NCBI GenBank assembly: GCA_937936325.1
Contig: CALGWV010000031.1
Location: 1-47,855 of the forward strand
DNA from: an uncultured Bdellovibrionales bacterium
Lineage (GTDB): Bacteria; Bdellovibrionota; Bdellovibrionia; Bdellovibrionales; UBA1609
Reading direction: 5' to 3'
DNA length: 47,855 nt
In this document: piece after piece, positions 4,495 through 44,755 of the stretch
Layout of the letters: each line of letters opens with the position of its first letter
Position numbering within the stretch: the first letter of the stretch is position 1
The notes under the pieces: model-generated
The model's database searches: none
What the model was told of the DNA's origin: nothing
Seen by the model: only the letters and a program-made list of their open reading frames with translations
Translations under genes and position numbers: made by a program

Positions 4495-4610
4495 CTCTCT
4501 AATTTGGCTTTGCCTCTATCTTATCTCTAAACCAGAGACAGTGACCAGTTCTGTCGCAAATATTAATATGAATATTTTCCACCTGAATGGTTGAAAGTCA
4601 GAATACTTTT

Positions 4611-4793
4611 AACCCAGATTCGCGGATAAGCGGTGAGGGAAAACTCATCAAACGTGCTTCAGCAGTGTCTAGCGCAGAAATTTTCTCGTGAATCGTACTC
4701 ACCTGTACACGGTGAAAAGAGAACATTTTGAGCACGACGCTGAGGGAGGGCGTTTCATGGGTTTTTACCGCCGCATATCCGCGGATCTGGGTT
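4611..4793. repeat. Long imperfect hairpin / MITE-like element, family B (about 183 bp)
   Basis: AACCCAGATTCGCGGATA (4611-4628) is the reverse complement of TATCCGCGGATCTGGGTT (4776-4793) at 17/18. Adjacent sub-arms are also partly complementary. Intergenic, with no credible ORF. Confidence 0.55.
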
Positions 4794-4849
4794 TTAAGTA
4801 CCTTAACAAAGAAATTATAAGGCTTTTGTAGTTTTTAATAAAGATTATT

Positions 4850-4952
4850 AGGGGCTGTGGAAGATTCATCTGTCTAAACGAGAAAAGCAGCTCACGAGAA
4901 AGTAGACTTGAGATGTTTTTTTGCAGTAGACAAACGAATCTTCCATAGCCAC
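4850..4952. repeat. MITE-like element, family A, internally deleted copy in inverted orientation (about 103 bp)
   Basis: Begins AGGGGCTGTGGAAGATTC and ends AAACGAATCTTCCATAGCC. Its interior (GAGAAAAGCAGCTCACGAGAAAGTAGA) is the reverse complement of 1521-1547 in copy 1. About 80 bp of the copy-1 core is missing. Confidence 0.65.
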
Positions 4953-5000
4953 TATAAGGCCAATATTGAAAAGCTATCCATAGATAATAATCTGAAGACA

Positions 5001-6086: not shown

Positions 6087-6240
6087 AAGTATCCAGTGTG
6101 AGTTTTTGATCATATATGTTGGTAATAAATAATAAAATTAAATTGTAAAATTAACAGCTCCAAGTGGAATCAGCAATCTCGAATGTAAATTTAACTCATG
6201 AGCATTTTCGGTCCGGATAAAAGCATAATGCCAGACAAGC

Positions 6241-10997: not shown

Positions 10998-10998
10998 A

Positions 10999-11889
10999 CT
11001 AAGCTCTCCCTAAAATATTTAAAAAGGCTTCTTCGAGACTCCCCTCTTGAATAGAAATATCTAGAATGGCCTCAAGGGGCAAACCTGTTTTAGCGAGTAA
11101 GGCCCCTAGGCTTTCTTCAGACGGAATTTTAAAATTAAGGGTCGAGCCCATGAGACTGTATTCTCCTTTTACTTTTTTTAAGTCTTCTGCGCTGAGATTC
11201 GTTTTAATTTGAACCCTTCGAAAGGTCAGATCTTGAATCAATTCTTTTGTCGGCCCTACTTTTTGTAAACGCCCTTGGTGTAAAATACCAACACGGTCAC
11301 AAAGAGCTTCTGCTTCTTCTAGATAATGGGTGGTGAGCAAAATTGTCACACCCGAATCTCTGAGCTCACGAACAAACTCCCAAAGAGAATTTCTCAACTC
11401 AATATCCACACCGGCCGTAGGCTCATCCAGCAAAAGAAGCTTAGGCTTATGCACTAGAGCTTTAGCAATGAGTAGACGTCGCTTCATCCCCCCGCTCAGG
11501 TGTTTCACTTTTTTATCTTTGTGGGGCATAAGCCCCAAGCGTTCAAGTAAAAAATGGATTTGCTTTTTGTTGTTAAGTCTTCCGAAGTATCCGGAGTGAA
11601 ACTTTAAAATTTCTTCTACACTGAAATACCCGTGGTTGACGATCTCTTGGGGGACATAGCCCAAAAGACTTTTCACTTTCTTGGGACTATCCGCCACTTC
11701 GAAACCAAAAACTTTCACAGACCCCGAGGTCGGCTCTTCTAAGCTCACAATTGTGGCGATGGTTGAGGTTTTTCCCGCTCCATTTGGACCTAAAAGTCCA
11801 AATATTTCACCAGGCTGTAGGGCTATCGAAAGATGATCCACAGCTGTGAAGTCACCATATTTTTTGACAAGATCTTGAATCACTAACAT
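10999..11889 (-). CDS. ABC transporter ATP-binding protein (ABC-2 exporter partner)
   Basis: Walker A GPNGAGKTS, signature LSGGMKRRL, Walker B LLLLDEPTAG. Start moved to the ATG at 11889 (MLVIQDLVKKYGD), because the longer ORF reaches into a repeat element. Confidence 0.9.
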   Translation of the reverse strand: MLVIQDLVKKYGDFTAVDHLSIALQPGEIFGLLGPNGAGKTSTIATIVSLEEPTSGSVKVFGFEVADSPKKVKSLLGYVPQEIVNHGYFSVEEILKFHSGYFGRLNNKKQIHFLLERLGLMPHKDKKVKHLSGGMKRRLLIAKALVHKPKLLLLDEPTAGVDIELRNSLWEFVRELRDSGVTILLTTHYLEEAEALCDRVGILHQGRLQKVGPTKELIQDLTFRRVQIKTNLSAEDLKKVKGEYSLMGSTLNFKIPSEESLGALLAKTGLPLEAILDISIQEGSLEEAFLNILGRA

Positions 11890-11967
11890 GAAAACAGTAT
11901 ACACGTGGAGATTGAGAAACTTAAGTCTCGCCTGCACCGAATAGAGCTGTACCCAATGGCTAGAGTT

Positions 11968-12138
11968 AATCATTTATCAGAATTTTTAAGTTCCTAGAAT
12001 CCAAACGAAGCCCACTTACGGCCGCAGAGCATCTCCCGGAGTGCGCTATGAATACATATCACACTCCAAGATATGCACTGTCGCGACGCTCAATGCTTCT
12101 TTTGGATTCTAGGAACTTAAAAATTCTGATAAATGATT
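11968..12138. repeat. Hairpin/MITE-like element with perfect 38-bp terminal inverted repeats (171 bp)
   Basis: AATCATTTATCAGAATTTTTAAGTTCCTAGAATCCAAA (11968-12005) is the exact reverse complement of 12101-12138. The 95-bp core is GC-richer and has internal pairing (GGAGTG...CACTCC). Confidence 0.8.
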
Positions 12139-13235: not shown

Positions 13236-13312
<77 letters not shown>

Positions 13313-13607: not shown

Positions 13608-14048
13608 ATGAGCAAAAAGACAGAGAAGAAAAATAGAAACATTTTTAAGGCCATTAGGGTTAAAGATGAAACGAAGAAAGTTGTAGATTCTTTTTTGAAA
13701 GATATTAACTCCAAAAAAGAAAGTGGCAAGATTACACACGATATCTTGCTTAACTTTTTAATTCAAAATGTCACAAAGGAGGAGATTGAATGCCTCAAAC
13801 TGACAAATCTGACATGGGAAATTGAAGGTTCCAGAATCAGACAACTTTATGAAAAAGAAAATAACAAAGTTTCAGACAATATGTGGATGCAGTTTATTCA
13901 AACTGATGAATACAGAGGTTTTGCAAAACTACATTCGAGACTCCCTTTACCTTGGGAGCAACCACTTGAAATGTTCACTTCTAAGAGCAGAAAAAAGAAC
14001 TTGACCAAGAATAACAATAATGTTATTCTTGAGGCTGAGTCGGCATGA
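13608..14048 (+). CDS. Hypothetical basic protein (possible ribbon-helix-helix-like N-terminus)
   Basis: GGAGG RBS at 13596-13600. Its stop overlaps the next gene's start (ATGA at 14045). No recognisable catalytic motif. Confidence 0.55.
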
Positions 14049-14359
14049 AGCAGATAAAAATGTTTTATTCCTCAAAAGGCTTTGTTCCCTTTGAGGAATG
14101 GCTTTTGAAACTACCGGATGTCATACAAGGGAGTATTTTAAAATACGTTAATCGTGTGGCAGCTGGCGGCTCAAGGAAAAATATTCGCTCTCTTGGAAAT
14201 GGAGTTTTTGAGATCAAAATAGATCAAGGCCCTGGCTACAGGATCTACTTTGGAGAAGTTGAAAATGTAATAATTCTTCTTCTCTTAGGTGGAGATAAAT
14301 CTACTCAGAAACGAGACATTTCGACAGCGAAAAAGTATTGGAGGCTATACAATGTATAG
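14045..14359 (+). CDS. Type II toxin, RelE/ParE superfamily, HigB/Gp49-like
   Basis: 104 aa. The pattern FEEWL...[43 protein letters not shown] is typical of the Gp49/HigB-like killer family. The toxin-first order and 8-nt overlap with the next ORF also fit. Confidence 0.7.
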
Positions 14360-14648
14360 AACAAAATCATTTGATAAATTGTTATCTAAGCAGCTCCAAA
14401 ACTCTGAAGTTGCTAGAGGCTATATAATAGAGTCTATGTCTGGAGATGAACCACTAACTTTAGTAGAAGCGTTACTAGATCTAATGGACACGATGGGACA
14501 TAAGGAGTACGCCAAACTTGTTAAAATGCAACCTTCAGCTATCGCTAGAATTGTTGCAAAAGGTGACATTCCAAAAATTGAAACCCTCAATAGACTTCTT
14601 GCTCCTTTTCAACTTCGAGCAAAACTTGATGTTGAAAAAGTTGCTTAA
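14352..14648 (+). CDS. Cognate antitoxin (addiction-module antidote, HTH-type)
   Basis: Start ATG at 14352 overlaps the toxin stop (ATGTATAG). About 98 aa. The segment [33 protein letters not shown] resembles an HTH region. Confidence 0.65.
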
Positions 14649-32204: not shown

Positions 32205-32759
32205 ATGCATTTTTTTGAGACAACACTCTTTATTTTAGCACTGTTCTCCGGTTCGGTTATATTGATCCTAGGACTGTGTACTGCATTTATAAAAGGCTTT
32301 AATTTCTGGCCACCTCCAAAACTGAATAGTTGGCAAAAAAGAGTTTCTTGGTTTCTTTTTCGTTTTCTATCATATCCACTTTTTACAATTGTCATTTTAA
32401 ACTTAAAGACAATCGACTGGAATAACACATTTTCGTTACTAGGCGGCCTAACATTTGGTTTTTGTCTTCTCCTTGCGTTCAGAATATCAATCAAATTGGG
32501 AATAAAGAACACCTACGGCGACAGGCAAGGTTTAATAACTGATGGTTGGTATTCCATAAGTAGAAACCCTGTTTATTTAGTCACTATTATCGCATTGCTC
32601 GGTCTTATAATTTGCATGCCCATATTTGAGGTCGTCACAGTGTCGCTACTTTGGATTTTGATTTATATACTTATTCCTTTTGTTGAAGAGCCTTGGTTAG
32701 AAAAACAATATGGGAAAAAATATTTGGAATATAAAAAACGAGTTGGAAGGTTCATGTAA
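32205..32759 (+). CDS. ICMT/phospholipid-methyltransferase-family membrane protein (CzcN-like)
   Basis: LITDGWYSISRNPVYLVTII...EEPWLEKQYGKKYLEYKKRVGRF matches the isoprenylcysteine carboxyl methyltransferase family signature. This family is known next to czc clusters (CzcN of Cupriavidus). Confidence 0.7.
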   Translation: MHFFETTLFILALFSGSVILILGLCTAFIKGFNFWPPPKLNSWQKRVSWFLFRFLSYPLFTIVILNLKTIDWNNTFSLLGGLTFGFCLLLAFRISIKLGIKNTYGDRQGLITDGWYSISRNPVYLVTIIALLGLIICMPIFEVVTVSLLWILIYILIPFVEEPWLEKQYGKKYLEYKKRVGRFM

Positions 32760-33143
32760 CTTAATTGGCTATCACCAAATTAAATTTAAGGACCGTTCAT
32801 AAATGATGCAACATGCTTCAGATCAGAATTTGCTTCATAAGCATATGATATTATATCTCTTGTACCACCCATTTATTAGGCCTTAGCAGCTATAACAAAT
32901 TTTTCTATATAAAATTTTCACGAAAATAAAGATAAAAACTTTTCTTGTTTATTTCCCACTGAATTATGGATAGCGTCATGTGAGCCGTACCAAGATTGGG
33001 ACGTAGGGGCAGAAATTAATAATCATCAGTGAATTCAACATGCTAACCGCCAAAAAGTTATAAAAAGCACACGTGCTGTCCCAAGGCTGGAACGAGAAGA
33101 AAAAGGGGCAAGCTACTACAATCATTAATTTTTTAAAAAATTC

Positions 33144-33208: not shown

Positions 33209-33223
33209 TGGCATCAGTCTTGC
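33209..33223 (+). promoter_or_regulatory. Sigma-54 (-24/-12) promoter
   Basis: TGGCAT-CAGTC-TTGC has exact consensus spacing (GG and GC 10 nt apart). It lies directly upstream of the operon, whose first gene is itself a sigma-54 activator. Confidence 0.7.
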
Positions 33224-33258
33224 CTATAGAGGGAGTGAGTATGATTGAAGGGGAACAA

Positions 33259-34698
33259 ATGAATTACAATATCCTTATAGCAGATGATGAAGAGCATATC
33301 TTATTAGACTACGAATCCAAGCTCGTTCGTCACTTAGACATAAACACAACTTTTGTAAGCTCCCCTGAAGAAGTAATAGAAATTTATAATAAAAATATAG
33401 ATAAGTATGCTGTGGTAGTTCTCGATTATAATTATCGTGACTCGAACTTAAATGGGGCATCTCTTGCAAAAAAAATCAAAGCAGTTAACCCTAAACAAGC
33501 AATACTCATTTGCTCTGGCCTAAATGATCAAGACCCTGCAATTGAAAGCTTCAAAGCTGGCGCAGTCGATTTTATAAAGAAAGGCTGCGACGTTAGCGAT
33601 ATTGTTGAAAAAATTCGAAGTCACTTCAAAAAATATGATGAAACGAGACGGGTTCTTGATTTTAATACATCTAAAAAAGCAAGGCTAACTAAAAACTCAA
33701 ACTTAATCTCAAAAATTGGCTTAGTGGGACAGTCGGACTCATTAGCTGAAGTCGCAAAGCAAATTGGAATTATAAGTGATTACGGATCTAATTCAACCGT
33801 CTTGATAAGAGGTGAATCAGGTACAGGAAAGGAGTTACTTGCAAAAGCTGTACATAAGTTTTCTTCTAGAAGCAATAAAATGTTCCTACCAATTAATTGT
33901 GGTGCAATACCTAAAGACCTTCTTGAAAGTGAACTTTTTGGTCATGAGAAAGGATCTTTTACTGGGGCAGTTACAAAAAAAATTGGAAAATTTCAACTAG
34001 CAAACGGTGGCACAATTTTTCTTGATGAAATTGGCGATCTTGATAGGCAGTTACAAGTTAAGTTACTGCGAGTCTTGCAGGAAGGAACAATAGAGCCTAT
34101 TGGCTCTAATAGCTCAATGACGGTAGATGTAAAAATAATTGCGGCTACACACGTCAATCTTGAAGATGCAATTGAGAGAGGAGACTTCCGAGAAGATCTT
34201 TATTATAGGTTAAATGTAATACCTCTCACCGTTGCTCCTTTGAGGCAAAGGTTAGAGGATATTGAGCCTCTAGTACTACACTTCATGGAGAAGCACCCGA
34301 ACGGAAAAGATAAAAAGTTCTTATACAAAACTATTCAATATCTTAAATCGTATCCTTGGAGAGGAAATGTAAGAGAACTAGAAAATATCGTAAACGGATT
34401 GCTAACAATGACTCTTAGTAATGAAATAAGACCGGAGCACCTGAGCGAAGATTTTTTTGTTACTGATGATGTGCAATTTGAAGATTTTAAAGGGAGCTTC
34501 GAAGAACTCAAAATCAGACTCCAAGACTACAGTGACAAGGTCCAAAAAGACTATATTTTAAAGAAGATTAGAAACCTGCCTACTCCGCTTTCATTCAGAA
34601 CTGCCGCGGAAAAAATAAATATTTCAAAGAGTTCCTTGAAAAGAAAACTCGACTCATGGGGATATTCATCAAAAGAGGTTTTTAACGATGGCAATTAG
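33259..34698 (+). CDS. NtrC-family sigma-54-dependent response regulator (REC + AAA+ + Fis-type HTH)
   Basis: REC domain (NILIADDEE...VVLDYNY). Walker A GESGTGKE, GAFTGA-type loop EKGSFTGA, Walker B IFLDEIG, R-finger region. C-terminal HTH (FRTAAEKINISKSSLKRKL). Start chosen at MNYNILI (33259) because the ATG at 33241 would leave almost no leader after the predicted promoter. 33241 remains possible. Confidence 0.9.
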   Translation: MNYNILIADDEEHILLDYESKLVRHLDINTTFVSSPEEVIEIYNKNIDKYAVVVLDYNYRDSNLNGASLAKKIKAVNPKQAILICSGLNDQDPAIESFKAGAVDFIKKGCDVSDIVEKIRSHFKKYDETRRVLDFNTSKKARLTKNSNLISKIGLVGQSDSLAEVAKQIGIISDYGSNSTVLIRGESGTGKELLAKAVHKFSSRSNKMFLPINCGAIPKDLLESELFGHEKGSFTGAVTKKIGKFQLANGGTIFLDEIGDLDRQLQVKLLRVLQEGTIEPIGSNSSMTVDVKIIAATHVNLEDAIERGDFREDLYYRLNVIPLTVAPLRQRLEDIEPLVLHFMEKHPNGKDKKFLYKTIQYLKSYPWRGNVRELENIVNGLLTMTLSNEIRPEHLSEDFFVTDDVQFEDFKGSFEELKIRLQDYSDKVQKDYILKKIRNLPTPLSFRTAAEKINISKSSLKRKLDSWGYSSKEVFNDGN

Positions 34699-35773
34699 TT
34701 CAATCAAAAATTTTCTGATAACTCAACTCTTGAAAACTGTTAGAAGTCAGAATTTTTTGTCTATTCAACTCGATATTACAAATGCATGTAATCTAAACTG
34801 CTCGCATTGTTATCACTCCCATCACAAAAATAAGGGGGCGATAAATCTAAGTCAGTGGAAAGAGATTATTGATCAGTATGATTTGCTGTTGCAAAAACTT
34901 ATCCTGAAGCCAAGGATAGTTATCTGTGGTGGGGAACCCTTGGTAAGCCCTATGCTTTTACCTTTAATCGAGTATATTAACCATAAGTGGCCAAAAACAG
35001 AAATTTCAATATTAACTAATGGAACAACTATAAATCGTAAATTATTAGAAAAACTAATTGATTATAATGTTGAATTTCAAGTTTCTATTGATGGCCCAGA
35101 TTCAAATAGACATGATGAAATCAGAGGAGCAGGAAATTTCCTAAAAGCATTATCTGGTATAAAGTTATCCCAACAATATGGAATTAGAGTTGCAGTCCTC
35201 ACCGTTCTATCTAAAAAAACATCATTTTGGATATATGATTTCTTTGATTTAGCTAAAACCATTGGCGTATGTTCAATGAATTTTACTAGATTCATTCCCC
35301 AAGGTAATGGGTATAAGCTGGTTGAAAATGGTTTAGATCGTGCTTTAACTGCTTTTGAGCTGAAAGAGTCATTTACGAAAATTTATGAAACTGGAAAATT
35401 ATTAAAAGTTAAGACAGGAACAAATCAGCCTTTATTTCATTTAGTAGATAGCTCTTTAGGTTCCAATGGAAATTTTGGTTTTCAAGGAATTGTAGTTGAT
35501 TATAAGGGAAATTTTAAAATCTCAAGTAGAGCTGATTACATAATTGGAAATATACTAGAAACAGGGCTTGAAAACTTATTTTTGAAAAATCCAATCATGA
35601 AAGAGCTTAGAAAAGGCAATATAGAAAAATGTGGATCATGTGTTCACTACTCAAGATGTGGTGGAGATAGAAATATAAGTTTCGCAGAAACTGGAAGTTT
35701 TTTAAAAGCCGACAGTGGTTGTTGGTTTAATTTAGAGAGTACATCTATAGACCTAGGAGGGAAGGTTATATGA
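34688..35773 (+). CDS. Radical SAM enzyme with a C-terminal SPASM/twitch-type Cys cluster (peptide/protein maturase class)
   Basis: CNLNCSHCY (CxxxCxxC), GGEPL and NGT motifs. C-terminal CGSCVHYSRCGG...SGCW. Overlaps the regulator gene by 11 nt. Confidence 0.85.
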   Translation: MAISSIKNFLITQLLKTVRSQNFLSIQLDITNACNLNCSHCYHSHHKNKGAINLSQWKEIIDQYDLLLQKLILKPRIVICGGEPLVSPMLLPLIEYINHKWPKTEISILTNGTTINRKLLEKLIDYNVEFQVSIDGPDSNRHDEIRGAGNFLKALSGIKLSQQYGIRVAVLTVLSKKTSFWIYDFFDLAKTIGVCSMNFTRFIPQGNGYKLVENGLDRALTAFELKESFTKIYETGKLLKVKTGTNQPLFHLVDSSLGSNGNFGFQGIVVDYKGNFKISSRADYIIGNILETGLENLFLKNPIMKELRKGNIEKCGSCVHYSRCGGDRNISFAETGSFLKADSGCWFNLESTSIDLGGKVI

Positions 35774-36111
35774 AAAATTTAAGAAAAGTGTATTTGATTT
35801 TATTATCAATTCTACCAATTTCATCAGTTTCATTTGCTGCTGAATTTGAAAGACAAATTGGAAATGCCTATAATGAGGCTGAATTCGATTTTTCAGGAGA
35901 GATGTTGAGAAAGCTAGAAGCTGAAAGTGATCAAGATATGAGTCCATATTATGAGTTTATGGATAAATACGAGATTGAAAGTCTAGAAACCTTAAAAACG
36001 AGAGAGTATAAACCACACTTAAACAGAATGCTTAAGTTCTACGTTGATGAAAAATTTGGAAATAACTCAAGTGTAGCAGCATCTCTAAGTCAAATTACTG
36101 GAGAGCACTAA
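35770..36111 (+). CDS. Small acidic exported protein of unknown function (113 aa)
   Basis: ATGA overlap with the radical SAM stop. GGAGG RBS. Signal peptide MKNLRKVYLILLSILPISSVSFA. The mature part is rich in Glu/Asp/Tyr/Phe. Confidence 0.7.
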   Translation: MKNLRKVYLILLSILPISSVSFAAEFERQIGNAYNEAEFDFSGEMLRKLEAESDQDMSPYYEFMDKYEIESLETLKTREYKPHLNRMLKFYVDEKFGNNSSVAASLSQITGEH

Positions 36112-36114
36112 ATA

Positions 36115-37641
36115 ATGAAAAAGATAGCATTAGCTCTTACTGGAGCATTTCTCATCACGGTGACATATATGACAATCCAAAATAATAAAGAAACTAAAAC
36201 AGTATTAAATGTTGGTTTTCCTGGATATTGGAAAGACTTGATTCCAGCACTACAACATACAGCATTAGCTGATGCTATTCTACATAACCAATTTGAAGCA
36301 CTTGTTGGAGGCGGTCATGGTGGTGCAATTGTTCCTCATGCGGCAAAGTCATGGAAAATTAGTGAAGATAAGAAAGTGATTGTATTTAAAATAGATACGT
36401 CTAAAAAATTTTCCAATGGGAAAAAATTAAAGGCTAAGCATTTTAAGGAATCTTGGGAGCATGGCTTATCATTGGAATCAAAATCAGCGAATAGTAGTTT
36501 ACAAGACGTTATTTACAAAATTGTCGGTTATCAAGATTTTAAAAATACGGGAAAGCTTTCAGGCGTGTCGGCTCCAGATGATGAAACTCTTATTGTAGAA
36601 TTTGAAAAACCTTTCAGAATGGGTCTTGCACACTTGATGGGTGCAAGAATGGCCGCATTTATTATCGAAGACGGAAAATATCTTGGCACAGGCCCGTATA
36701 TTATCCATGACTCAACTGAAAAAAAAGTACATTTAACCAAAAATCCATTTAACAAATCAGATGCTTATTTCGAAAGAATTAATATTGAAGTTGTTCCTTC
36801 TAGTGAGGCTGAAAGCGCTCTTCAAAGTGGGAAAATTGATTTATATGCATTTGCCGAAATTACTAAATTAAAAGATTGCTTCTTAGAAAATAAAAAAACA
36901 GGTTGCCAGTCTGGTATGGAAAGCAGACATATGACTCTAAATGTTAATGGCAAAAAAGGAAGGTTTTTTAGTAATCCCAACTACAGAAAAGCTCTTCAGT
37001 ATCTTCTACATCAGGGGATAGAAGATTCTTTTCCGAACGAAGAAAAGTTCAAGACTAAGGTAGATCCTCAAATATACCTACCCTTGCAATCTGGACGAAT
37101 TGAAAGTGACAGAGCAAATGAAATAATTGAAGATGGAAAAAAATACGTAGATGATTTTATTAAGGCTACTGAAAAAAATCCGTTATTTTTCGCAACTTTT
37201 AATAAACATTCATGGATTAAAGGTATTCTCGAAAATAAAGGGGTTAAACTTTCACAAGAGTCTGTCAAAATTAAAGGCTCTCGTGTTTTAGAAATGTTTT
37301 ATAAAACCCACGAGCCTGACTTGTTATTTACTTTTGCTAGCGTTGCAAGTGGAGATCCAGATGGAATCTATCACGTGCTTGGAAAACACGGCTCTATTTC
37401 ATCGCCTATGATACAACGAAGTAAGGTAGCGGAAATTCTTGAAAGTGGTCGGAGTATAACTGATCCAAGTGAAGTGAACCGTCACTATAAAAAAGTGAGT
37501 GAAGTCGTTTTAGAAGAAGTTCCTTTTGTACATCTTGGCTTTTTAAAGACTGTTGTCGTTTTTAGAAAAGACAGAATTAATGTAAGAAAGAAGTTTGTTG
37601 AACGATCAGACAATCAATTTACAGCATATGAAGCCTTGTGA
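36115..37641 (+). CDS. Family-5 (peptide/nickel type) solute-binding protein, orphan (no ABC permease/ATPase nearby)
   Basis: 508 aa with an N-terminal signal anchor. The length and N-terminal region (LNVGFPGYWKDLIPALQHT...LVGG...AKSWKISEDKK) resemble SBP_bac_5. Starts 3 nt after the previous stop. Confidence 0.7.
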   Translation: MKKIALALTGAFLITVTYMTIQNNKETKTVLNVGFPGYWKDLIPALQHTALADAILHNQFEALVGGGHGGAIVPHAAKSWKISEDKKVIVFKIDTSKKFSNGKKLKAKHFKESWEHGLSLESKSANSSLQDVIYKIVGYQDFKNTGKLSGVSAPDDETLIVEFEKPFRMGLAHLMGARMAAFIIEDGKYLGTGPYIIHDSTEKKVHLTKNPFNKSDAYFERINIEVVPSSEAESALQSGKIDLYAFAEITKLKDCFLENKKTGCQSGMESRHMTLNVNGKKGRFFSNPNYRKALQYLLHQGIEDSFPNEEKFKTKVDPQIYLPLQSGRIESDRANEIIEDGKKYVDDFIKATEKNPLFFATFNKHSWIKGILENKGVKLSQESVKIKGSRVLEMFYKTHEPDLLFTFASVASGDPDGIYHVLGKHGSISSPMIQRSKVAEILESGRSITDPSEVNRHYKKVSEVVLEEVPFVHLGFLKTVVVFRKDRINVRKKFVERSDNQFTAYEAL

Positions 37642-39320
37642 AAGATGAACAGATGATAAGCCTTAATAAATGGTTTGCTAGAAATGCTAGATACCCATTA
37701 ATTTTATCATCTGTCTTTATAGCGATAGTCACAATTGTTTTTATCTCAACAGCTTTTATTAAGAAAGAACGAAACCAAATAAGTGTTATAAAACAACTTA
37801 CTCAAAGTATTTTTGCAGTTGCTATTACACAAAACAACAGACCATTGTTGGAGTCTGCTTTTACTGTTGCTGCCGAAGACCTTGGAGTTAACGTTATTAT
37901 ACTTTGTAACAATGATGAAGAAATGCTTTCAATTCCCTTCTCTATAGAAAGCTGCAAAAAGCTACCCAAAGCAAAAATCACAGAGAAGTTTGTAACATTT
38001 CAGCCTTCGGGATTTTCATCGTACAGAGTATATGCATATATAGACAGGTTGCACAATTCTTGGTCATTGATATATACTGCTGCTTTCACGTTTTTCTTCT
38101 TAATAATAACATTCTTACTAACTTATCGAGTCCAATGGATTTTTGATAAGGAAATAATTTCTCCAATTGCAAATCAATTGTTATCAGAAAAAGAAATTAA
38201 AATTTTAGAGATAAACGATTTGCGAAAAAACTTAAAACAAAAAGAGATGCTGATGGAAAAGGAATTATCTGCCAGCTCAGCCATTGCGCACAAAAAAAGT
38301 TTAGCTCATAATATAAAATCCAAAATTCATACATTAAGGAGTGTTCACAGTGAAATCAACAAACTAATTCCTGAAAGAAGTAACAAAACACTTTCTAGTT
38401 TAATCAAGTCCTTCACAACTATGCATAATAATCTCAACGATATAGTTCAGAAAGAAGTAGAGGATATTCCATTATCAAAAGAATCATTCGATGAAACTAT
38501 TTCTCTTGTTAATAGAAATAGGTCTTTCGTTAATATTATAGAGGTACTAAATTCTTGCATTGAACACAAAAAAAGCGAATTTAAAAAAATTAAAATTCAC
38601 TTTGATCTAACACCTAATCTTTTAGTTTTTTCAAAAATTTCAGAGTTGCAATTTAGACACATAATTTCGAACTTAATTAATAATTCAATCGAAGCAAATG
38701 CCTTAGAAATAAATTTTGAAATAAAGATAGATTCAGAAATAATTATTAGAGTAATAGATAATGGAAACGGGATTGCGCCTGACGTGATAGACAGCTTGTT
38801 TGAAAAAGACATAACTGCTGGGAAAATAGGTGGAACTGGATTTGGCTTATTTCATGCTAAAAGATTTTTAGAGTCCTGGAATGGAACCATCAAAGTGCTT
38901 AAAACAGATAATGCAGGATCAACATTTGAGCTTAGCTTGCCTAAATGGGAGCCTCAGAGAATAGAAATACCATTAAACTCGAAAGTATCAATTCTTGATG
39001 ACGACCCAAATGTACATGAAAACTGGGAAAACTTATTGGGTAAAAGAAAAGATGTCACAATAACTAAGTTTAATAATACAAATGATTTTGAAAGATGGAT
39101 TGATGAAGACGTTACTGACTATTCAAATCTACTCTGCTTCATAGATAATGACTTAGGCGAAAAGACTACTGGATCTGAATTAATAGTCTCTCTTGGTATA
39201 CAAAATATTTGCTCTTTGGTAAGTAACAGTTTCGATGACCCAGTAGTTGTTAGTCGTTGCGAAAGTAGCAACATTCCAATAATTCCAAAAATAGCTTTAG
39301 AAAAATACATTTCAATCTGA
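37638..39320 (+). CDS. Hybrid sensor histidine kinase (2 TM + periplasmic loop + HisKA-like + HATPase_c + C-terminal receiver)
   Basis: GTGA overlap with the SBP stop (alternative ATG at 37653). H-box-like LAHNIKSKIHTL, N box SNLINNSIEAN, G1 DNGNGI, G2 GGTGFGL. Receiver-like tail (VSILDDDP...CFIDNDLG). Confidence 0.8.
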   Translation: MKDEQMISLNKWFARNARYPLILSSVFIAIVTIVFISTAFIKKERNQISVIKQLTQSIFAVAITQNNRPLLESAFTVAAEDLGVNVIILCNNDEEMLSIPFSIESCKKLPKAKITEKFVTFQPSGFSSYRVYAYIDRLHNSWSLIYTAAFTFFFLIITFLLTYRVQWIFDKEIISPIANQLLSEKEIKILEINDLRKNLKQKEMLMEKELSASSAIAHKKSLAHNIKSKIHTLRSVHSEINKLIPERSNKTLSSLIKSFTTMHNNLNDIVQKEVEDIPLSKESFDETISLVNRNRSFVNIIEVLNSCIEHKKSEFKKIKIHFDLTPNLLVFSKISELQFRHIISNLINNSIEANALEINFEIKIDSEIIIRVIDNGNGIAPDVIDSLFEKDITAGKIGGTGFGLFHAKRFLESWNGTIKVLKTDNAGSTFELSLPKWEPQRIEIPLNSKVSILDDDPNVHENWENLLGKRKDVTITKFNNTNDFERWIDEDVTDYSNLLCFIDNDLGEKTTGSELIVSLGIQNICSLVSNSFDDPVVVSRCESSNIPIIPKIALEKYISI

Positions 39321-39368: not shown

Positions 39369-39461
39369 TGTCCCAAGGCTGGTTTTCGTGTTTCAGGCGC
39401 GGGACACCAAAAAATATAACTATTCCAATGAGTTATAAAAACTTGTTCCAGTCATGGGACG
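39369..39461. promoter_or_regulatory. Second cluster of GTCCCA/TGGGAC motifs (candidate enhancer sites)
   Basis: TGTCCCAAGGCTGG (39369-39382) is identical to 33077-33090. CGGGAC lies at 39400-39405 and CCAGTCATGGGACG at 39448-39461. Confidence 0.5.
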
Positions 39462-39523: not shown

Positions 39524-39538
39524 TGGCACATGCCTTGT
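39524..39538 (+). promoter_or_regulatory. Sigma-54-like promoter (imperfect -12)
   Basis: TGGCAC-ATGCC-TTGT has a perfect -24 element and correct spacing, but the -12 reads GT instead of GC. It sits about 57 nt before the ATG at 39595. Confidence 0.5.
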
Positions 39539-39594
39539 AATAGTAAGTCATGAAATCAAACAGTCAAGTTTGGTTTTTTAAAAAGGGAGAGGAA

Positions 39595-39882
39595 ATGAAA
39601 AGCCTATTTTTACTTACAGTTCTAGTACAAGGCACAAACAGTTTTGCATTTGAAGCAAATCTTAAAGGCTCAGAGACGCTCACTACTAAAGAGATCGTTG
39701 AATCAGGAGCAACGTCAGTTTCATGCAAAGACAGCAAGCCTACCTGTGTTCTCCAAGGTGACGTTTACGGCATACATTATGCCGGACAAGAGTTTAAAGA
39801 CATAGTTTGGATTGAAAAACCACTCGGTTCAACGACTAGAGAGGCATTAAAACAACTTAAAGCGGATGGCTTTTGTAACTAA
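39595..39882 (+). CDS. Small secreted protein of unknown function
   Basis: Start moved to MKSLFLLTVLVQGTNSFA (GGGAGAGG RBS). 95 aa with three Cys. Confidence 0.55.
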   Translation: MKSLFLLTVLVQGTNSFAFEANLKGSETLTTKEIVESGATSVSCKDSKPTCVLQGDVYGIHYAGQEFKDIVWIEKPLGSTTREALKQLKADGFCN

Positions 39883-39904
39883 CTAAAAATAATTGGGAGA
39901 AAAT

Positions 39905-40147
39905 ATGAATTTACTAAAAATAGCATCATCACAGCCAGACTGTCCTTTTGATTGCTCTAACCTAGATAAGTACATTTCAAGTGATGAGCTTTGGAGTTTC
40001 ATCAATGAAAACGTCAATAGATTGGTTCGTAAAGTACCAAAAAGTGAAGAGATAGAAAGATCGCTTTGGGAGATTAAAAAAGAGTTAAATTTTATTTTCT
40101 CCCAATATTCAATCGTAGAGATTAACAACTCACAGGAGATTAAATAA
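39905..40147 (+). CDS. Hypothetical small cytoplasmic protein
   Basis: ATG at 39905 with a GGGAGA RBS. Its stop abuts the next start (TAATG junction at 40145-40149). Confidence 0.5.
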   Translation: MNLLKIASSQPDCPFDCSNLDKYISSDELWSFINENVNRLVRKVPKSEEIERSLWEIKKELNFIFSQYSIVEINNSQEIK

Positions 40148-40338
40148 TGACACCAAAACTTATTAAAGAAATGACTGAACTACTAGAGAAAATCGAAGAT
40201 CAAAATCTTCACCATAGGGATTCAGAGACTCATGAAAGTTTTACCCTCTTAGATAAACTGATTTGCGAGATCAATGACTTTTGGGACGGCTTTAGAGAGC
40301 CGCGCTATGTAGAAAAATATGAACAACTGGTTTCTTAA
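40147..40338 (+). CDS. Hypothetical small acidic protein
   Basis: 63-aa ORF, translationally coupled upstream. Confidence 0.45.
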   Translation: MTPKLIKEMTELLEKIEDQNLHHRDSETHESFTLLDKLICEINDFWDGFREPRYVEKYEQLVS

Positions 40339-40347
40339 GGGGGAACG

Positions 40348-40581
40348 ATGAATAAGTTTAACAAACGAAAATTTGAAAAAGAAGAAATTGAAAGATTTGC
40401 CAACAAGTTGGTGGAAGTTTTTAAAAATCATTATGGGATTGATATTACTTATGGAAATTTGAACTTTGTCTACCACCAAGGGGTCTGTAAAAGTGTAACT
40501 CTTGAATCAAGAAATCGAATTTGTAATTTCAGAGAATCAGTAGACAAGCCCGTAATTAAGTTTGCAAAGAAGGTGTCATGA
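40348..40581 (+). CDS. Hypothetical small basic protein
   Basis: GGGGGA RBS. ATGA overlap with the following large gene. Confidence 0.5.
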   Translation: MNKFNKRKFEKEEIERFANKLVEVFKNHYGIDITYGNLNFVYHQGVCKSVTLESRNRICNFRESVDKPVIKFAKKVS

Positions 40582-43500
40582 ATACAGATAAAGACATAAG
40601 TCTTCCAATCGCACTATTGCTTTTCGGAGCAATAGTCGCTGTTTTCTTAGGACTGCACTTTAAAGCAGATATTTACGGGATCTTAGAGATTTCAGATATT
40701 TTGTATAAGGAGTACAGAACCTATATTCTAATTTTCTTAAGTATCATATTTTTAAACACGATCATATCGTCTTTATATTTAAGAAGGCTTCTGGGCCTCT
40801 CTAAACAAGGGGCAAGATTAAACTCGATTAGACCTAATGGAGCCAGTGTATCTCAACGAGGGATAATTTTTCTAGTAACTCTTCTGACCTCAATTCTAAT
40901 GATGACTTTGGTTAGTGATCAATTCATCCCAAAATTTCCAGAAGCGATTGGGGCTTTAGAGATTTTCAAATGGCAATCGTTTTTCTTCAAGTTCAACTTA
41001 GGACTTTTTGCTGCATTTGTATTTTACAGAATAATAGGATTTCTAAAGGTTGATGATCTTTTTTCATCAAGAGTTAAAATTAAAAGATTCCCTAAGGCCA
41101 AGAGTCAAATCACTCTAGGCACATCCCCAGCAGATAAGAAAGAAAAATGGGTCAGTTTAGATAGAAAGGCCTTAAACGGTTCAATATTAATCACCGGCTC
41201 AATTGGCTCGGGTAAAACTGCTGGTGCCATGCTCCCGTACTTTAAACAAGTACTCACTAATTTTGATCGAAAATCTATTTTAGCAATTGATCCTAAAAGA
41301 ACTTTCGTTGATGAAGCACAAAATCTTATAGACCAGTACAATCCAGAATCTATTGTAAGAAGAATAACTCTCGGTGGAACCGAAAAATACAATCCAATTT
41401 ATCTGAATAAGGTTCTTAAAAATACAAGATTTCTGGTTGTCACAAAGATGTTGATGCAAAGTGCTGCTAACTTTTCAAATGATGGGAGCAAAAATTCTTT
41501 TTGGGATCAAAGTGCGTTCAACCTTGTCAAAAATTCTTTGATCTACTGTGCGGCAATGAGCGAGTACTATACTCTCAATGAGCTATACAGTGCTTTAATT
41601 AGGGCCACAACTGTAGACCTCGCTGATGACTTAGAAAAAATGCTTTTAACTAAAAAGAGTGATTCTAAATTTGATGAAGAGGAACTCTTTAACATCAATT
41701 GCGCCATAAATTACTTTAAGCTTGAATTTAAATGCTATGACCAGAAAATAAAAACTAGTGTTTTGGCCACAGCAACAAGTTTTCTAAATCAGTTTCAAGA
41801 ATACCAAGCTTCACAGATCTTTTGCCCTCCTAAGGATGAACGAACCATATTGAGCATTGATGAGGTTGTGGACAAGGGAGAAATCATTCTATTTGATGTA
41901 GATAACCCTGCTTTAGCTAAATCAATGGGAACAATTATAAAGCTTCAATACGAAGATTCAATTTTAACCAGAGTTGCTGATAAAAAACGAGGTAAAGAAG
42001 TTCCGGCCTTTCTCATAATAGATGAGGCACAAGACGTTGTGAGTTCTGCTGGAGGTGATGGGCTTGGAGATGACAGATTCTTAGCTAAGTGTCGTGAAGC
42101 AAATGCCATTTGTATTATGGCCTCTCAAAGTTATTCATCTATTCAAAGTACATTTAAAAGTGAGGTGGCAACAAGAGAGCTTGTTCAAAACTTTAGAACA
42201 AGAATCGCTTTTCACTCCGCAGATGAGAAAACCATAAACAATTACAAAGAATTAGTAGGCCAATCTGAAAGTGAAAAGAAATCTCACAGCATTTCAGAGA
42301 TAGCCCAAAAAACAGAGAAAAACTATTTACTAGGAGGTTTTGATTCAAAAGACGCAAATATCAGTGAGTCGATTAACATCAGCACACAAAAAGAATGGGA
42401 TATTACAGGAAGAGAGTTCACAAGCTTAGGAACTTTTGAAGCTTGGGGGCTAGTTTATAATGGGAAAAGGACAGAGCTTAAGAAGCTCTATATGAAACCA
42501 AACTTTCTTGAAAGGCCCGAGACTGTCCATAGCAAGGTTCTAGATTCATTGTCACCAGAGGCAACTGGTCTACTTAGGAAGTCAGTGAGGTGGATTCTCG
42601 GAGCTTTAACAGGCCTTGCAATAACATCTTCGGCAAATGCTTTTCCATCTATTTGCTCAGTGATTAATCAGCCTAGCTTTAGGTCCTGCTTTTCTTTTAA
42701 CGTAAGTCCAACGATGTGTGGAAGTTTCCCGCCAAGGCCATGTGCGAGACTTAGCTATTATGTGCCTCAAACTTTCATTGAAACGACCAGCAGCAAAGGA
42801 CTTTCTCACTTCTCATCTCTTCCCATAGCAGCGGCCCAGTTAGCGGGAGTCATCAAGAAAAAGCCTTACGGGGCCGTGAATGATGATGACACTCAGTCAT
42901 TTCAGGCAAGGACAATTGCAGTCCCGCTAACGCAAATGGCTTTTTCAGGGATGCCTTGTGGCGGGGCAAGGCAAGAAAAAATGTGTTTCGATGGCATGAG
43001 CGAACACATAGACACTCACTGGTCTACGGGCAAAGGCGATCTCTTGCAGCCTGCTTTTCTAGCATGGAAAGTTAGTCCAAAGCTCTGCCTCTTGAAAGGG
43101 GCCGCCACCTCCGTGGTAGGCGGCCCCACTGGGGTTGTAGGAGCTGGATCACCTAGTTGCAGTATGCCGTTTCAAACCCTTCCAGTATTTCCTCCATCGG
43201 GTATGCCAGTATGTACAGGCTGGGGTGTGATGTTTCCAAGATACGGAACAACTGTTGGCGGCTCAGAGGTAATGGGCTCACTTAATATAGCGAGCAGAAT
43301 TAAAAGTCTCTCTGTTGAGGTTTTTAAAAATATGCCTGCTGGCTTTGATGAAAAATGGTCTATGCTCTCACCAAATTCAAGTCAGTGCTTCAGAGAATTT
43401 GAAAACATGGGAAAGCTTGAAACATTCAACCTCGTGAATAACCGAGGAAGAACTATCGGAAAAGATTTACGTGGAAACTTATTCACCACATGGAAGAGAG

Positions 43501-43586
43501 TCAGTTGCACAAGAGATTGGGCGGCAGTTCCTTTTTATAAAGCTCAAGTCGAGCTTTTAAGTGCAATATGTAAGGGGCTTAACTAA
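40578..43586 (+). CDS. Type IV coupling-protein-like ATPase (TraD/VirD4-like) continuous in frame with a TraU-like periplasmic domain
   Basis: N-terminal TM helices, Walker A GSIGSGKTAG and Walker B FLIIDEAQD. Then an internal signal-peptide-like segment RWILGALTGLAITSSANA. The Cys-rich C-terminal 330 aa is collinear with my recollection of F TraU (MFPRYGTT..SEVMGSL / MYPFNGWV..SSPLQSS; SQCFREF / GQCHPFG; TTWKRVSC / LMWRKRNC). Confidence 0.6.
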   Translation: MNTDKDISLPIALLLFGAIVAVFLGLHFKADIYGILEISDILYKEYRTYILIFLSIIFLNTIISSLYLRRLLGLSKQGARLNSIRPNGASVSQRGIIFLVTLLTSILMMTLVSDQFIPKFPEAIGALEIFKWQSFFFKFNLGLFAAFVFYRIIGFLKVDDLFSSRVKIKRFPKAKSQITLGTSPADKKEKWVSLDRKALNGSILITGSIGSGKTAGAMLPYFKQVLTNFDRKSILAIDPKRTFVDEAQNLIDQYNPESIVRRITLGGTEKYNPIYLNKVLKNTRFLVVTKMLMQSAANFSNDGSKNSFWDQSAFNLVKNSLIYCAAMSEYYTLNELYSALIRATTVDLADDLEKMLLTKKSDSKFDEEELFNINCAINYFKLEFKCYDQKIKTSVLATATSFLNQFQEYQASQIFCPPKDERTILSIDEVVDKGEIILFDVDNPALAKSMGTIIKLQYEDSILTRVADKKRGKEVPAFLIIDEAQDVVSSAGGDGLGDDRFLAKCREANAICIMASQSYSSIQSTFKSEVATRELVQNFRTRIAFHSADEKTINNYKELVGQSESEKKSHSISEIAQKTEKNYLLGGFDSKDANISESINISTQKEWDITGREFTSLGTFEAWGLVYNGKRTELKKLYMKPNFLERPETVHSKVLDSLSPEATGLLRKSVRWILGALTGLAITSSANAFPSICSVINQPSFRSCFSFNVSPTMCGSFPPRPCARLSYYVPQTFIETTSSKGLSHFSSLPIAAAQLAGVIKKKPYGAVNDDDTQSFQARTIAVPLTQMAFSGMPCGGARQEKMCFDGMSEHIDTHWSTGKGDLLQPAFLAWKVSPKLCLLKGAATSVVGGPTGVVGAGSPSCSMPFQTLPVFPPSGMPVCTGWGVMFPRYGTTVGGSEVMGSLNIASRIKSLSVEVFKNMPAGFDEKWSMLSPNSSQCFREFENMGKLETFNLVNNRGRTIGKDLRGNLFTTWKRVSCTRDWAAVPFYKAQVELLSAICKGLN

Positions 43587-44755
43587 TGGCAATAAAAGTA
43601 ATAAATGGTCTAACAACAACCTACACACTTTCTTCTGAGGAGAAACTTGAAAGCAGTGGAACTTATACAGGGCTTATAAGAGACTCAATTGATGAGGCGA
43701 TAAGATTGAACGCCAGTGACATTCATTTTGAACCTACAGAAAAAGGTTTTGTAATTCGGCACCGTATTTGTGGAAATCTTAAACTATTTTTTAATTTAGA
43801 AGAATCTAAAGATATTAAAATGCCGCCGGAGATTTTAAAAAATGGAATCACTACAACATTAAAATCTATTTCAAATATACCACTTGGAAGACAAAACGTT
43901 GCTCAAGACAGTGGAGTCAGTTTACCTAAACGAGGAGTAGACATTAGAGTTAACAAAATGCCGACCATTTATGGTGAAAAGTTTGTTTACCGCCTCTTTG
44001 ATAAAAATCAATCAACTGATCTAACCAAAATTGGCCTAACTCCTCAATCACTAAAGGACGTTATTGCAGCAACGAACAAGAAATCAGGACTGATTATTAT
44101 TACTAGTGAAACAGGAAGTGGTAAAACTTCTACAATTTATTCAATGATTGAGGCCATTGATAGGGGTTCACTAAATGTTTCAACTTTAGAAAATCCAGTT
44201 GAAAGAAACTTAAAAGGTGTGAATCACACAGCAGTAAATGACTCCTTCAGTTTTGCTGATGGGCTTAGAGCATTGATGAGGCAAGACCCAGATGTCATCG
44301 TTGTTGGAGAAATTAGAGATGAAGTGACCGCTAAACTTGCTGTAAGGGCAGCATCTACAGGGCACTTAGTTATCTCAACCATGCACACCAACACTGCTCT
44401 AAATATTCCTATGGTTTTTGAATACTATGGTGCTGACAAATTACAGATGATGAGATCGTTAATTTTAGGTGCGAATCAAAGACTAGTAAAAAGAATATGT
44501 CAAAACTGTGCATTATCTACCGAGAATGGATTCAAGAGAGCAAATGAAAAAGGATGTAGGCAATGTTTTTCTGGTTTTGAAAACAAAAGAGAGCTTCTCT
44601 TTGAATATTTCACAAGCGAGCAAATCAAAGAAAATATGGAATTGGGACTTAAGGTTTCAATGAATGAAATTTTTAACAATCTAGCAAAAAAAGGAGTCAT
44701 TGATGAACGTGAAATCTATCGTCAAGGTAGTTTGTTTAATTCAGACAGTGCTTAG
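43586..44755 (+). CDS. PilB/GspE-family secretion ATPase (short form, ATPase domain plus tetracysteine C-terminus)
   Basis: ASDIHFEP, Walker A SETGSGKTST, Asp box/Walker B LRALMRQDPDVIVVGEIRD, His box GHLVISTMHTN, CQNC...CRQC. TAATG overlap with the upstream gene. Confidence 0.8.
   Translation: MAIKVINGLTTTYTLSSEEKLESSGTYTGLIRDSIDEAIRLNASDIHFEPTEKGFVIRHRICGNLKLFFNLEESKDIKMPPEILKNGITTTLKSISNIPLGRQNVAQDSGVSLPKRGVDIRVNKMPTIYGEKFVYRLFDKNQSTDLTKIGLTPQSLKDVIAATNKKSGLIIITSETGSGKTSTIYSMIEAIDRGSLNVSTLENPVERNLKGVNHTAVNDSFSFADGLRALMRQDPDVIVVGEIRDEVTAKLAVRAASTGHLVISTMHTNTALNIPMVFEYYGADKLQMMRSLILGANQRLVKRICQNCALSTENGFKRANEKGCRQCFSGFENKRELLFEYFTSEQIKENMELGLKVSMNEIFNNLAKKGVIDEREIYRQGSLFNSDSA

Follow-up and report, generated by a model that had tools for sequence, protein, structure and literature searches.

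We describe a five-gene signalling cassette, and the conjugation-type operon that follows it, on a 47,855-nucleotide contig of an uncultured Bdellovibrionales bacterium (assembly GCA_937936325.1, contig CALGWV010000031.1); the whole contig, 47.8 kb, was analysed and is referred to here as the window. The cassette encodes an NtrC-type response regulator, a radical S-adenosylmethionine (SAM) enzyme, a small exported protein, a substrate-binding protein (SBP) of family 5 and a membrane sensor histidine kinase. These parts belong to known classes, while their combination, and the clade of the enzyme, are previously undescribed. A sigma-54-type promoter, P1, stands ahead of the cassette and a second, P2, ahead of the following operon, each with palindromic sites upstream. 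Domains were called with Pfam, equivalogs compared with NCBIfam, and folds compared by Foldseek on an AlphaFold model. Comparison loci holding relatives of the radical SAM enzyme are labelled L and a number; about 45 family loci, 41-62% identical to the enzyme of the window, came from two collection scans, and their gene maps were built from called genes and tblastn. The features of the cassette and its two promoters are as follows.

32987-33002, unstranded: distal palindrome GTACCA-AGAT-TGGGAC upstream of P1, with at most one mismatch to GTCCCA-N4-TGGGAC
33078-33093, unstranded: middle palindrome GTCCCA-AGGC-TGGAAC upstream of P1; array position matched in L001, L008 and L005
33144-33159, unstranded: proximal perfect palindrome GTCCCA-AACG-TGGGAC upstream of P1, starting 65 bp before the P1 motif
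33209-33224, plus strand: P1, sigma-54-type -24/-12 promoter (TGGCAT-N5-TTGCC)
33259-34698, plus strand: NtrC-type response regulator/sigma-54 enhancer-binding protein; receiver, AAA+ domain with GSFTGA, helix-turn-helix-like C-terminus by eye; start revised
34688-35773, plus strand: radical SAM enzyme of an unnamed clade; CX3CX2C and a single auxiliary motif CX2CX5CX20C in a SPASM-derived domain
35770-36111, plus strand: acidic pre-protein of 113 aa, presumed substrate or signal precursor; Sec-signal-like N-terminus LLSILPISSVSFA, cleavage site, then AE and a variable mature part
36115-37641, plus strand: orphan family-5 SBP, presumed kinase co-sensor; N-terminal hydrophobic anchor or signal
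37638-39320, plus strand: membrane sensor histidine kinase; periplasmic domain, H-box AHNIKS, HATPase_c, divergent C-terminal receiver
39370-39385, unstranded: half-site GTCCCAAGGCTGG, with a 13-mer in common with the 33078 site
39445-39460, unstranded: palindrome GTTCCA-GTCA-TGGGAC upstream of P2, starting 79 bp before the P2 motif
39524-39539, plus strand: P2, sigma-54-type promoter (TGGCAC-N5-TTGTA) ahead of the tra operon; a pattern match with counterparts in relatives

The five open reading frames (ORFs) are packed as the preliminary description of this DNA had them, and we read every junction directly. The TAG stop of the regulator (34696-34698) overlaps the ATG of the radical SAM gene at 34688, an ATGA at 35770-35773 joins the latter to the small gene, and the TAA of the small gene (36109-36111) is followed by 'ata' and the ATG of the SBP at 36115. 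Two starts need comment. The regulator most likely begins at ATG 33259 (MNYNILIADDE) and not at TTG 33220, because its homologues begin MNYKILIADD and the TTG sits inside the -12 element of P1. The kinase probably begins at ATG 37653 (MISLNKWF), because its homologues begin MISLxxWF. The GTGA described at the junction of SBP and kinase is present at 37638-37641, but with the later start the overlap may instead be a gap of 11 nt.

Many genomes share the synteny of the block. Relatives of the radical SAM enzyme number in the hundreds; the top 120, at 46-63% identity, belong to Bdellovibrionales, Oligoflexus and Elusimicrobia, and the nearest loci lie in metagenome-assembled Bdellovibrionales genomes. 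Identity falls sharply beyond the family, to 32% or less in Clostridia, Thermodesulfobacteriota and archaea, and a search of 1.84 billion representatives gave a few dozen clusters above 200 bits, which makes this a family of modest size. The order radical SAM enzyme, small ORF, family-5 SBP, kinase holds wherever a family locus extends far enough downstream, in about 25 loci; the syntenic ones are L001-L017, L025, L087-L096, L102 and L134, from Bdellovibrionota, Oligoflexia and Elusimicrobia. The sigma-54 regulator is less fixed in place: it lies directly upstream in L001/L002, L005, L008 and L092, upstream and split by an IS21 element in L003/L007 (about 3900-7100), divergent in L004/L089, and downstream in L006, L011 and L091. 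An IS21-family insertion also stands behind the small gene in L022 (1800-3015), and the insertions in L003, L007 and L022 suggest that some copies of the cassette have been inactivated. Other variations on the block are an extra SBP gene upstream of the radical SAM gene in L010 (2098-3573), besides the downstream copy, and a second SBP-kinase pair in tandem in L004. TIR-domain genes lie beside the module in L001 (12690-13415) and L003 (16108-17083). In the window, the P1 enhancer region is closely preceded by a gene for a PEMT/ICMT-like membrane methyltransferase (32205-32759), which other loci do not keep next to the module.

The promoters and their palindromes carry the regulatory part of our interpretation. 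The consensus-spaced -24/-12 promoter claimed ahead of the operon (TGGCATCAGTCTTGC at 33209-33223) is real, its position being conserved in L001, L005, L008 and L092; it lies 50 nt before the regulator ATG at 33259, and its counterparts lie 55-58 nt ahead of the regulator start. The pattern TGGCAY-N5-TKGY occurs exactly twice in the window, at P1 and P2, both intergenic, on the plus strand and ahead of operons, against a mean of 0.57 matches in the shuffled window. Counterparts of P2 precede the same operon in L001 (13672), L005 (12899) and L008 (12838). With at most one mismatch, GTCCCA-N4-TGGGAC occurs four times in the window, three times upstream of P1 and once upstream of P2; with at most two mismatches it occurs 6 times, where 0.78 would be expected. 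The start of the proximal P1 site lies 65 bp from the start of the promoter motif in the window and 66 bp in L001, L005 and L008, and at P2 the distance measured in the same way comes to 79 bp in the window, against 78 bp in L001. In L001, P1 (6526) is preceded by three sites and P2 (13672) by two, and L008 has three perfect sites ahead of P1 (6514). L005 uses another palindrome, GTGGCCG-N6-CGGACAC, with three copies ahead of P1 (6530) and a further occurrence ahead of P2 (12899). This layout recurs though the proteins of these relatives are only 40-60% identical. Since the operator sequence switches at both promoters of one locus together, one regulator would serve both, and this joint change is the strongest available evidence, short of experiment, for a common regulator. 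Sigma-70 promoter and terminator scans of the window gave background levels; two hairpins flagged in the terminator scan are the GTCCCA-N4-TGGGAC-type palindromes themselves, whose arms are conserved in sequence and do not co-vary, which argues against simple terminators. The sole match in an Rfam scan of the window was a tRNA, with neither a leader RNA nor a riboswitch. Positive autoregulation through sigma-54, as proposed earlier, is well founded, because the sigma-54 promoter is conserved and palindromic sites lie upstream of it. The self-contained loop of the preliminary description does not hold: the neighbouring tra operon has a sigma-54 promoter of its own, which carries the same enhancer-like palindrome, so the module has an output. 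We regard the regulatory half of the interpretation as likely: sigma-54 acting at P1 and P2, a cassette that regulates itself, and an output in the form of the tra operon.

The regulator has the build of an NtrC-family sigma-54 response regulator, with a receiver (Response_reg, 4e-13), an AAA+ domain with a GAFTGA-type loop (Sigma54_activat, E=1.4e-68; AAA_lid_14) and a putative C-terminal DNA-binding segment. The motifs GSFTGA and GESGTGKE can be read in its sequence, and its homologue in L001 gave a weak match to HTH_50. It falls below every NCBIfam equivalog cut-off (NtrC, 332 against 559; LuxO, 288 against 800). The same holds across the cassette, as all five proteins are far below the cut-offs of named equivalogs and the small protein has no NCBIfam model at all. 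Of the domains named in the preliminary description, Radical_SAM, SBP_bac_5, Sigma54_activat and HATPase_c were found by profile search, and SPASM and HisKA were not.

The SBP matches SBP_bac_5 (PF00496, 116 bits, 2.1e-33) and is divergent, its best NCBIfam match being NikA (64 against 393, 9e-18) and OppA scoring 30 against 947; its best solved relative is a peptide-binding protein (3.5e-11). It had been called an orphan, and so it is: the window holds no peptide-type ABC permease or ATPase, and in relatives the kinase is always the next gene and permeases never are, none being found behind the SBP in any locus. The only ABC genes in the window (10182-11973) are an ABC-2 exporter pair outside the element. 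A role in an ABC importer was rejected because no permease accompanies the SBP in any locus. The kinase matches HATPase_c (68 bits, 9.6e-19) and not HisKA, and its H-box, AHNIKS/AHDIRSPL, is conserved. A periplasmic domain common to the kinases contains the motif QxNRxLIES and Cys residues that are conserved. The earlier label of hybrid kinase has evidence on both sides. The signature residues of a C-terminal receiver (DD, D, T/S, K) are conserved across homologues, but the domain scores 17.5 bits against a Pfam cut-off of 30.2, and no histidine phosphotransfer (Hpt) protein is encoded in the operon.

The enzyme is a member of the radical SAM superfamily (PF04055, 80.4 bits against a cut-off of 29.5, E 2.3e-22), and its cluster motif CNLNCSHC (CX3CX2C) is near-invariant in an alignment of 28 sequences, the exceptions being rows truncated at the N-terminus. 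It had been labelled SPASM-type. A SPASM-derived domain and fold are indeed present, but the domain is degenerate: there is no match to Pfam SPASM (PF13186), and the seven- or eight-cysteine motif of two clusters, CX9-15GX4C ... CX2CX5CX3C ... C, is absent. The second auxiliary set (AuxII; C315-X2-C318-X5-C324 ... C345) is kept in all family members, and resembles the auxiliary motif of AhbD. At the positions of the first (AuxI) the family reads FGFQG, K(V/I)SSR and CGGDR, where the outgroup, with the full SPASM cysteine set, reads FCPVG, LPCRR and CGGCR, so that all four AuxI ligands have been lost. Judged by these cysteines, the enzyme derives from SPASM ancestors and has retained one of two auxiliary clusters. 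The AlphaFold model (predicted local distance difference test score, pLDDT, 87.7) has a fold like that of the anaerobic sulfatase-maturating enzyme (anSME), SuiB and CteB, its closest Foldseek neighbours being the peptide- or protein-modifying enzymes SuiB, anSMEcpe, SkfB, ChlB, TigE and CteB (template modelling score, TM, 0.63-0.72). The enzyme lacks a signal peptide and is thus taken to be cytoplasmic. Its top NCBIfam matches are TIGR04053, AhbD and NirJ2, with the peptide maturases ACGX, MftC and WgkB nearly as high, and the scores lie far below the cut-offs (115 bits against 395; AhbD, 108.6 against 500; NirJ2, 107.6 against 500). No anSME model is among the 25 matches listed of 79. Membership of the anSME or AhbD families was rejected because the scores are far below the cut-offs and the partner genes are not present, neither a sulfatase domain nor haem genes being found among the window ORFs scanned. 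By sequence the enzyme forms a clade of its own that is neither anSME nor a housekeeping clade, and neither Pfam nor NCBIfam has a model for this clade or for the small protein. The preliminary description had named a housekeeping enzyme clade, a block without synteny, or an ABC importer as the normal context of the SBP as grounds for giving up its reading; with synteny, an enzyme clade of its own and no ABC partner, we found none of the three.

The 113-aa protein was described as a signal-peptide protein coupled to the enzyme gene by an ATGA overlap, and both the overlap and a conserved Sec-signal-like N-terminus are there. It has no family match in Pfam, contains no Cys and no (C/S)-x-(P/A)-x-R motif, and carries a C-terminal tail rich in small residues and Ser. 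A small ORF with a signal-like motif lies directly downstream of the enzyme gene in 28 of the 29 loci collected manually. The motif consists of K/R residues followed by LLxLL[AST]xLP[ILV][AS][SA]V[SA]FAA[EQKD], with an invariant Pro, and the strict pattern has 27 matches in the family loci, one per locus and always just behind the enzyme gene, against a single one in the outgroup loci, 1.24 Mb in all. Pairwise identity averages 0.45 in the 17-aa signal-like segment (0.136 in a composition-only shuffle), 0.47 in the enzyme, and 0.18 in the mature part of the small protein (0.14 when shuffled). The N-terminus has the form of a Sec signal with an SFA/A cleavage site and, on these identities, is far too conserved for a signal peptide. 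The mature parts run from about 25 to about 100 residues and are near-random in sequence; a small-small-x-Ser pattern, which 17 of the 30 tails show and about 10% of other windows, is suggestive only. The adjacent small ORF with one conserved and one variable part is what would be expected of the precursor of a peptide made on the ribosome and modified after translation (RiPP) beside its maturase, while the RiPP recognition element (RRE) also expected of such a pair was not found. A single-sequence AlphaFold model of the 113-aa protein is uninformative (pLDDT 50.8), and a profile search from 17 small proteins gave only 14 matches, the family being too short and divergent for a word-indexed search.

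Behind P2 lies the operon that we take for the output of the cassette, with the following genes.

39595-39882, plus strand: small secreted Cys-containing protein, the first gene behind P2; ORF open from 39550
39893-40581, plus strand: three small, tightly packed ORFs of 84, 63 and 77 aa, with no family matches
40578-43586, plus strand: TraD/TrwB-like type IV coupling protein, 41-50% identical to downstream genes in L001, L005 and L008
43586-47768, plus strand: genes for a PilB/GspE-like ATPase, a TraF/TrbB-like thioredoxin and TraL-, TraE- and TraK-like proteins of a putative divergent F-type type IV secretion system (T4SS)

Homologues of the first protein stand in the same place in L001 (40% identity) and L005 (36%), and in L001, L005 and L008 the module is followed by homologues of this first gene and of the coupling protein. 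The matches to SXT_TraD, TraL, TraE, TraK_C and TraF/TrbB are weak and almost all below cut-off. The coupling protein, of 1002 aa, has a hydrophobic segment and then a Cys-rich C-terminal extension of about 350 aa without a family match; its gene in L005 is split near the N-terminus (280 + 741 aa). The ATPase (43586-44755) is nearest to PilB/GspE (8e-75) and not to VirB11, TrbB or TraJ, which is unusual for F-like transfer. The GC content falls after a tRNA-Met gene (13236-13312) and stays low to the window end at 47855, and within this region, 13236-47855, lie two CDF genes and two RND sets for metal efflux with an HMBD adaptor, besides the signalling module and the tra genes; a putative toxin-antitoxin-like pair lies at 14045-14648. 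With its low GC from the tRNA-Met, its metal-efflux cargo and its tra genes the region looks like an integrative conjugative element (ICE), of which neither an integrase nor a relaxase lies within the window. The same order of cargo, module and tra genes is found in L001.

In other lineages the cassette stands beside other genes. The output in L003 is a TonB-dependent receptor. Elusimicrobia have a second SBP-kinase pair and a truncated RpoN paralogue at the locus; in L004 (6762-7814) and L024 (197-1240) a protein of about 350 aa with the sigma-54 DNA-binding domain only is encoded directly upstream of the radical SAM gene, and a promoter-like sequence, TGGCATAAAAATTGCT, recurs in these Elusimicrobia loci. 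In L095 (5750-8460) the module has beside it a second radical SAM gene, this one encoding a full SPASM domain, together with a PqqD-like gene and a gene for an ABC ATPase; sigma-54-like promoters lie in and around the stretch at 5751, 5856, 6120 and 7306, and this set could be a RiPP cluster under control of the module. In ten other loci, Pfam searches of what lies downstream of the module revealed no shared output (UDG, SLT, SRAP or nothing). Because the output genes differ among lineages, the cassette appears to be a portable sensor with exchangeable outputs.

We propose a model, held with moderate confidence as a combined whole, in which the cassette is an autoinduced sensing switch on an integrative conjugative element. 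What we observe directly is the genes and their synteny, both promoters, and the enhancer-like sites that vary together between P1 and P2. The proposed sequence of events is as follows. Transcription from P1, with its three palindromic sites, would yield one operon for regulator, radical SAM enzyme, pre-protein, SBP and kinase. In the cytoplasm the enzyme would most likely make a small, Sec-compatible change on the pre-protein before export, and the conserved signal-like N-terminus may act as the handle by which the enzyme holds it. Following a signal-peptidase cut at SFA/A, a periplasmic product or fragment would be bound by the orphan SBP, which in turn would gate the kinase, passing phosphate to the NtrC-type regulator. 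The regulator would then bind GTCCCA-N4-TGGGAC and activate both P1, giving positive feedback, and P2, giving expression of the F-like tra/T4SS operon. We infer the binding of the regulator, the pairing of enzyme with substrate and the ligand of the SBP, and sensing may take place between cells or within one periplasm. The step in which the enzyme modifies the pre-protein and its product or a fragment is the SBP ligand is one we hold a little less firmly than the whole; it is suggested by the adjacency of the genes, the unusual conservation of the N-terminus and the structural similarity of the enzyme to peptide-modifying radical SAM enzymes. More tentatively, the cassette may be a Gram-negative counterpart of peptide-pheromone control of conjugation, with the modified Sec-exported product or its signal-peptide fragment as the signal, re-used for other outputs such as the RiPP cluster in Elusimicrobia.

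Several observations weigh against this model. The mature parts of the small proteins share no strict core motif, just the soft small-small-x-Ser tail, and an 85-aa periplasmic product cannot pass the outer membrane unaided, which argues against classical quorum sensing. Two loci among the most divergent in the family, at 41-43% identity, depart from the pattern: in L097 (2400-2877) no small ORF lies between enzyme and SBP, the SBP gene beginning about 14 nt after the enzyme gene, and in L020 (8565-8833) none is clearly recognisable. An RRE/PqqD domain is missing from the enzyme, whose cluster motif is preceded by only about 25 residues, and since AhbD/NirJ-type enzymes have no solved structure the list of structural neighbours is biased to peptide-modifying enzymes. 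A receiver-bearing hybrid kinase would normally need the Hpt protein that the operon lacks. P1 is a full consensus match but P2 has TTGT instead of TTGC at -12, and the 39445 palindrome was also flagged as a weak terminator-like hairpin, with a possible terminator role. Finally, in loci without tra genes the output differs.

In one alternative, what the SBP and kinase detect comes from outside, for instance a peptide, a metal chelate or an oligosaccharide supplied by prey or the environment, and the enzyme and small protein are not the source of the signal but an accessory, such as a periplasmic modulator or inhibitor of the SBP-kinase complex like CpxP or ExoR. Family-5 SBPs have very diverse ligands, CBP/ChiS senses an external sugar, and the best NCBIfam match of the SBP here is NikA, far below cut-off; mature parts with almost no conservation would be odd for a specific ligand, L097 manages without the small ORF, and the outer membrane would trap the product of 85 aa. 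However, in almost all loci the genes for enzyme and small protein are joined to the sensor genes by translational coupling and lie behind a common promoter, and the signal-like segment is as conserved as the enzyme, for which a modulator has no obvious need. We regard this alternative as doubtful, and it is the best of those that we considered. Less likely is that the enzyme acts elsewhere, either on the SBP or kinase pre-protein, as an anSME would, or on a small molecule such as a tetrapyrrole, as AhbD or NirJ would, the small protein being an unrelated partner. The enzyme's top matches, the likeness of its single auxiliary motif to that of AhbD, its lack of an RRE and the alignment of anSME over its full length by sequence all point this way, but those NCBIfam scores are far from their cut-offs (115 against 395; 109 against 500), the peptide maturases score almost equally, the scanned ORFs of the window contain no haem or sulfatase genes, and what invariably adjoins the enzyme gene is the small ORF and nothing else.

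Enterococcal sex pheromones are cut from the signal peptides of lipoproteins and captured by the OppA-like PrgZ. By analogy, the signal peptide itself, modified or not, could be the signal here, with the cleaved hydrophobic fragment caught by the SBP and switching on the transfer genes. The signal-like segment is the only strongly conserved part, with its invariant Pro and VSFAA end, the SBP belongs to the peptide/nickel family, and a conjugation-type operon is the output in the window, L001, L005 and L008. We consider this rather improbable, as nothing points to a signal-peptide peptidase or to release, a motif near-invariant across phyla would give no specificity between elements, and both the need for a radical SAM enzyme and the soft C-terminal motif are left unexplained. 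A chance juxtaposition of unrelated genes behind a fortuitous promoter can be dismissed almost entirely. Single -24/-12 matches do arise at random (the shuffle mean per window given above), but three phyla keep the same gene order, the promoter has a conserved position and the enhancer arrays are conserved too, the motif of the small ORF is confined to loci of this kind, and a chance grouping is contradicted by the synteny.

The proposed switch resembles several known systems in part. In the LuxS/LuxP-LuxQ/LuxU/LuxO circuit of Vibrio a periplasmic binding protein gates a hybrid kinase that acts on a sigma-54 NtrC-type regulator, much as we propose for the SBP, kinase and regulator of the cassette, and the regulator here matches the LuxO model at 1.2e-85, still below the equivalog cut-off. 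In contrast to that autoinducer-2 (AI-2) circuit, in which LuxP is of the ribose-binding type, the SBP here is of family 5, there is no Hpt protein corresponding to LuxU, the putative signal maker is a radical SAM enzyme with a ribosomal pre-protein, and the regulator appears to activate its own operon. The agrBDCA and comCDE systems also unite precursor, processing enzyme, kinase and regulator in one autoinduced operon, and in agr a separate second promoter (P2/P3) serves the output. The cassette differs from both in its Gram-negative host, sigma-54, Sec-exported precursor, SBP co-receptor and radical SAM enzyme, and has no sequence relationship to them. Signal modules that stand beside transfer genes and control them are known from enterococcal PrgZ plasmids, Ti plasmids (TraR/TraI) and ICEBs1 (Rap-Phr), and PrgZ is itself an OppA-type family-5 SBP; their receptors, however, are cytoplasmic and act after import or are of the LuxR type, and none is known to involve a kinase, sigma-54 or a radical SAM enzyme.

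Closer parallels exist for single steps. AioX/AioS/AioR is a set of binding protein, kinase and sigma-54 regulator, and in CBP/ChiS of Vibrio a family-5 SBP controls a sensor kinase (PMC8050422). CBP, however, works with an ABC importer as well and has chitin sugars as its cue, AioX is of the phosphonate-binding family, and neither system has a radical SAM or precursor gene. In a review of SBP-dependent signalling CBP/ChiS is the only family-5 SBP listed as acting on a kinase, and radical SAM enzymes and sigma-54 go unmentioned (PMC8050422). The SPASM maturases SuiB, CteB and SkfB and anSME share the fold of the enzyme, anSME aligning along its whole sequence, and anSME acts on a Sec pre-protein before export, as we propose here. 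Unlike them, the enzyme here has lost its AuxI ligands, has no RRE, has no partner with a (C/S)xPxR motif and is accompanied by no sulfatase that we found. Bufferins, lastly, are RiPPs whose precursors of 80-120 aa bear a Sec signal, are modified in the cytoplasm, exported by Sec and cleaved by signal peptidase, and only compact modifications suit SecY (PMC11626156). The likeness is that of a small Sec-signal precursor next to a modifying enzyme, our small protein being presumed modified, but bufferins depend on an MNIO and a DUF2063 protein, have conserved Cys residues where ours has none, chelate copper, and have no SBP, kinase or regulator.

No description of the five-gene system turned up in the literature searches, which agrees with the preliminary description, in which the combination was not recognised as a described system. 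Within the literature library that was searched there was likewise no paper on control of conjugation by a ribosomal peptide signal in Gram-negative bacteria, and none on sigma-54 control of ICE transfer genes. Peptide-based autoinduction is a hallmark of Gram-positive bacteria, and both of these forms of control are essentially unknown in Gram-negative bacteria. The cassette offers a defined and testable circuit of two promoters and a 16-bp operator, and a new radical SAM clade with one of the two SPASM clusters and an obvious candidate substrate. If the model is true, the small protein would be the second example, after bufferins, of a modified small protein that bears a Sec signal. As the cassette travels on elements with metal-resistance cargo, understanding its trigger bears on when such elements spread.

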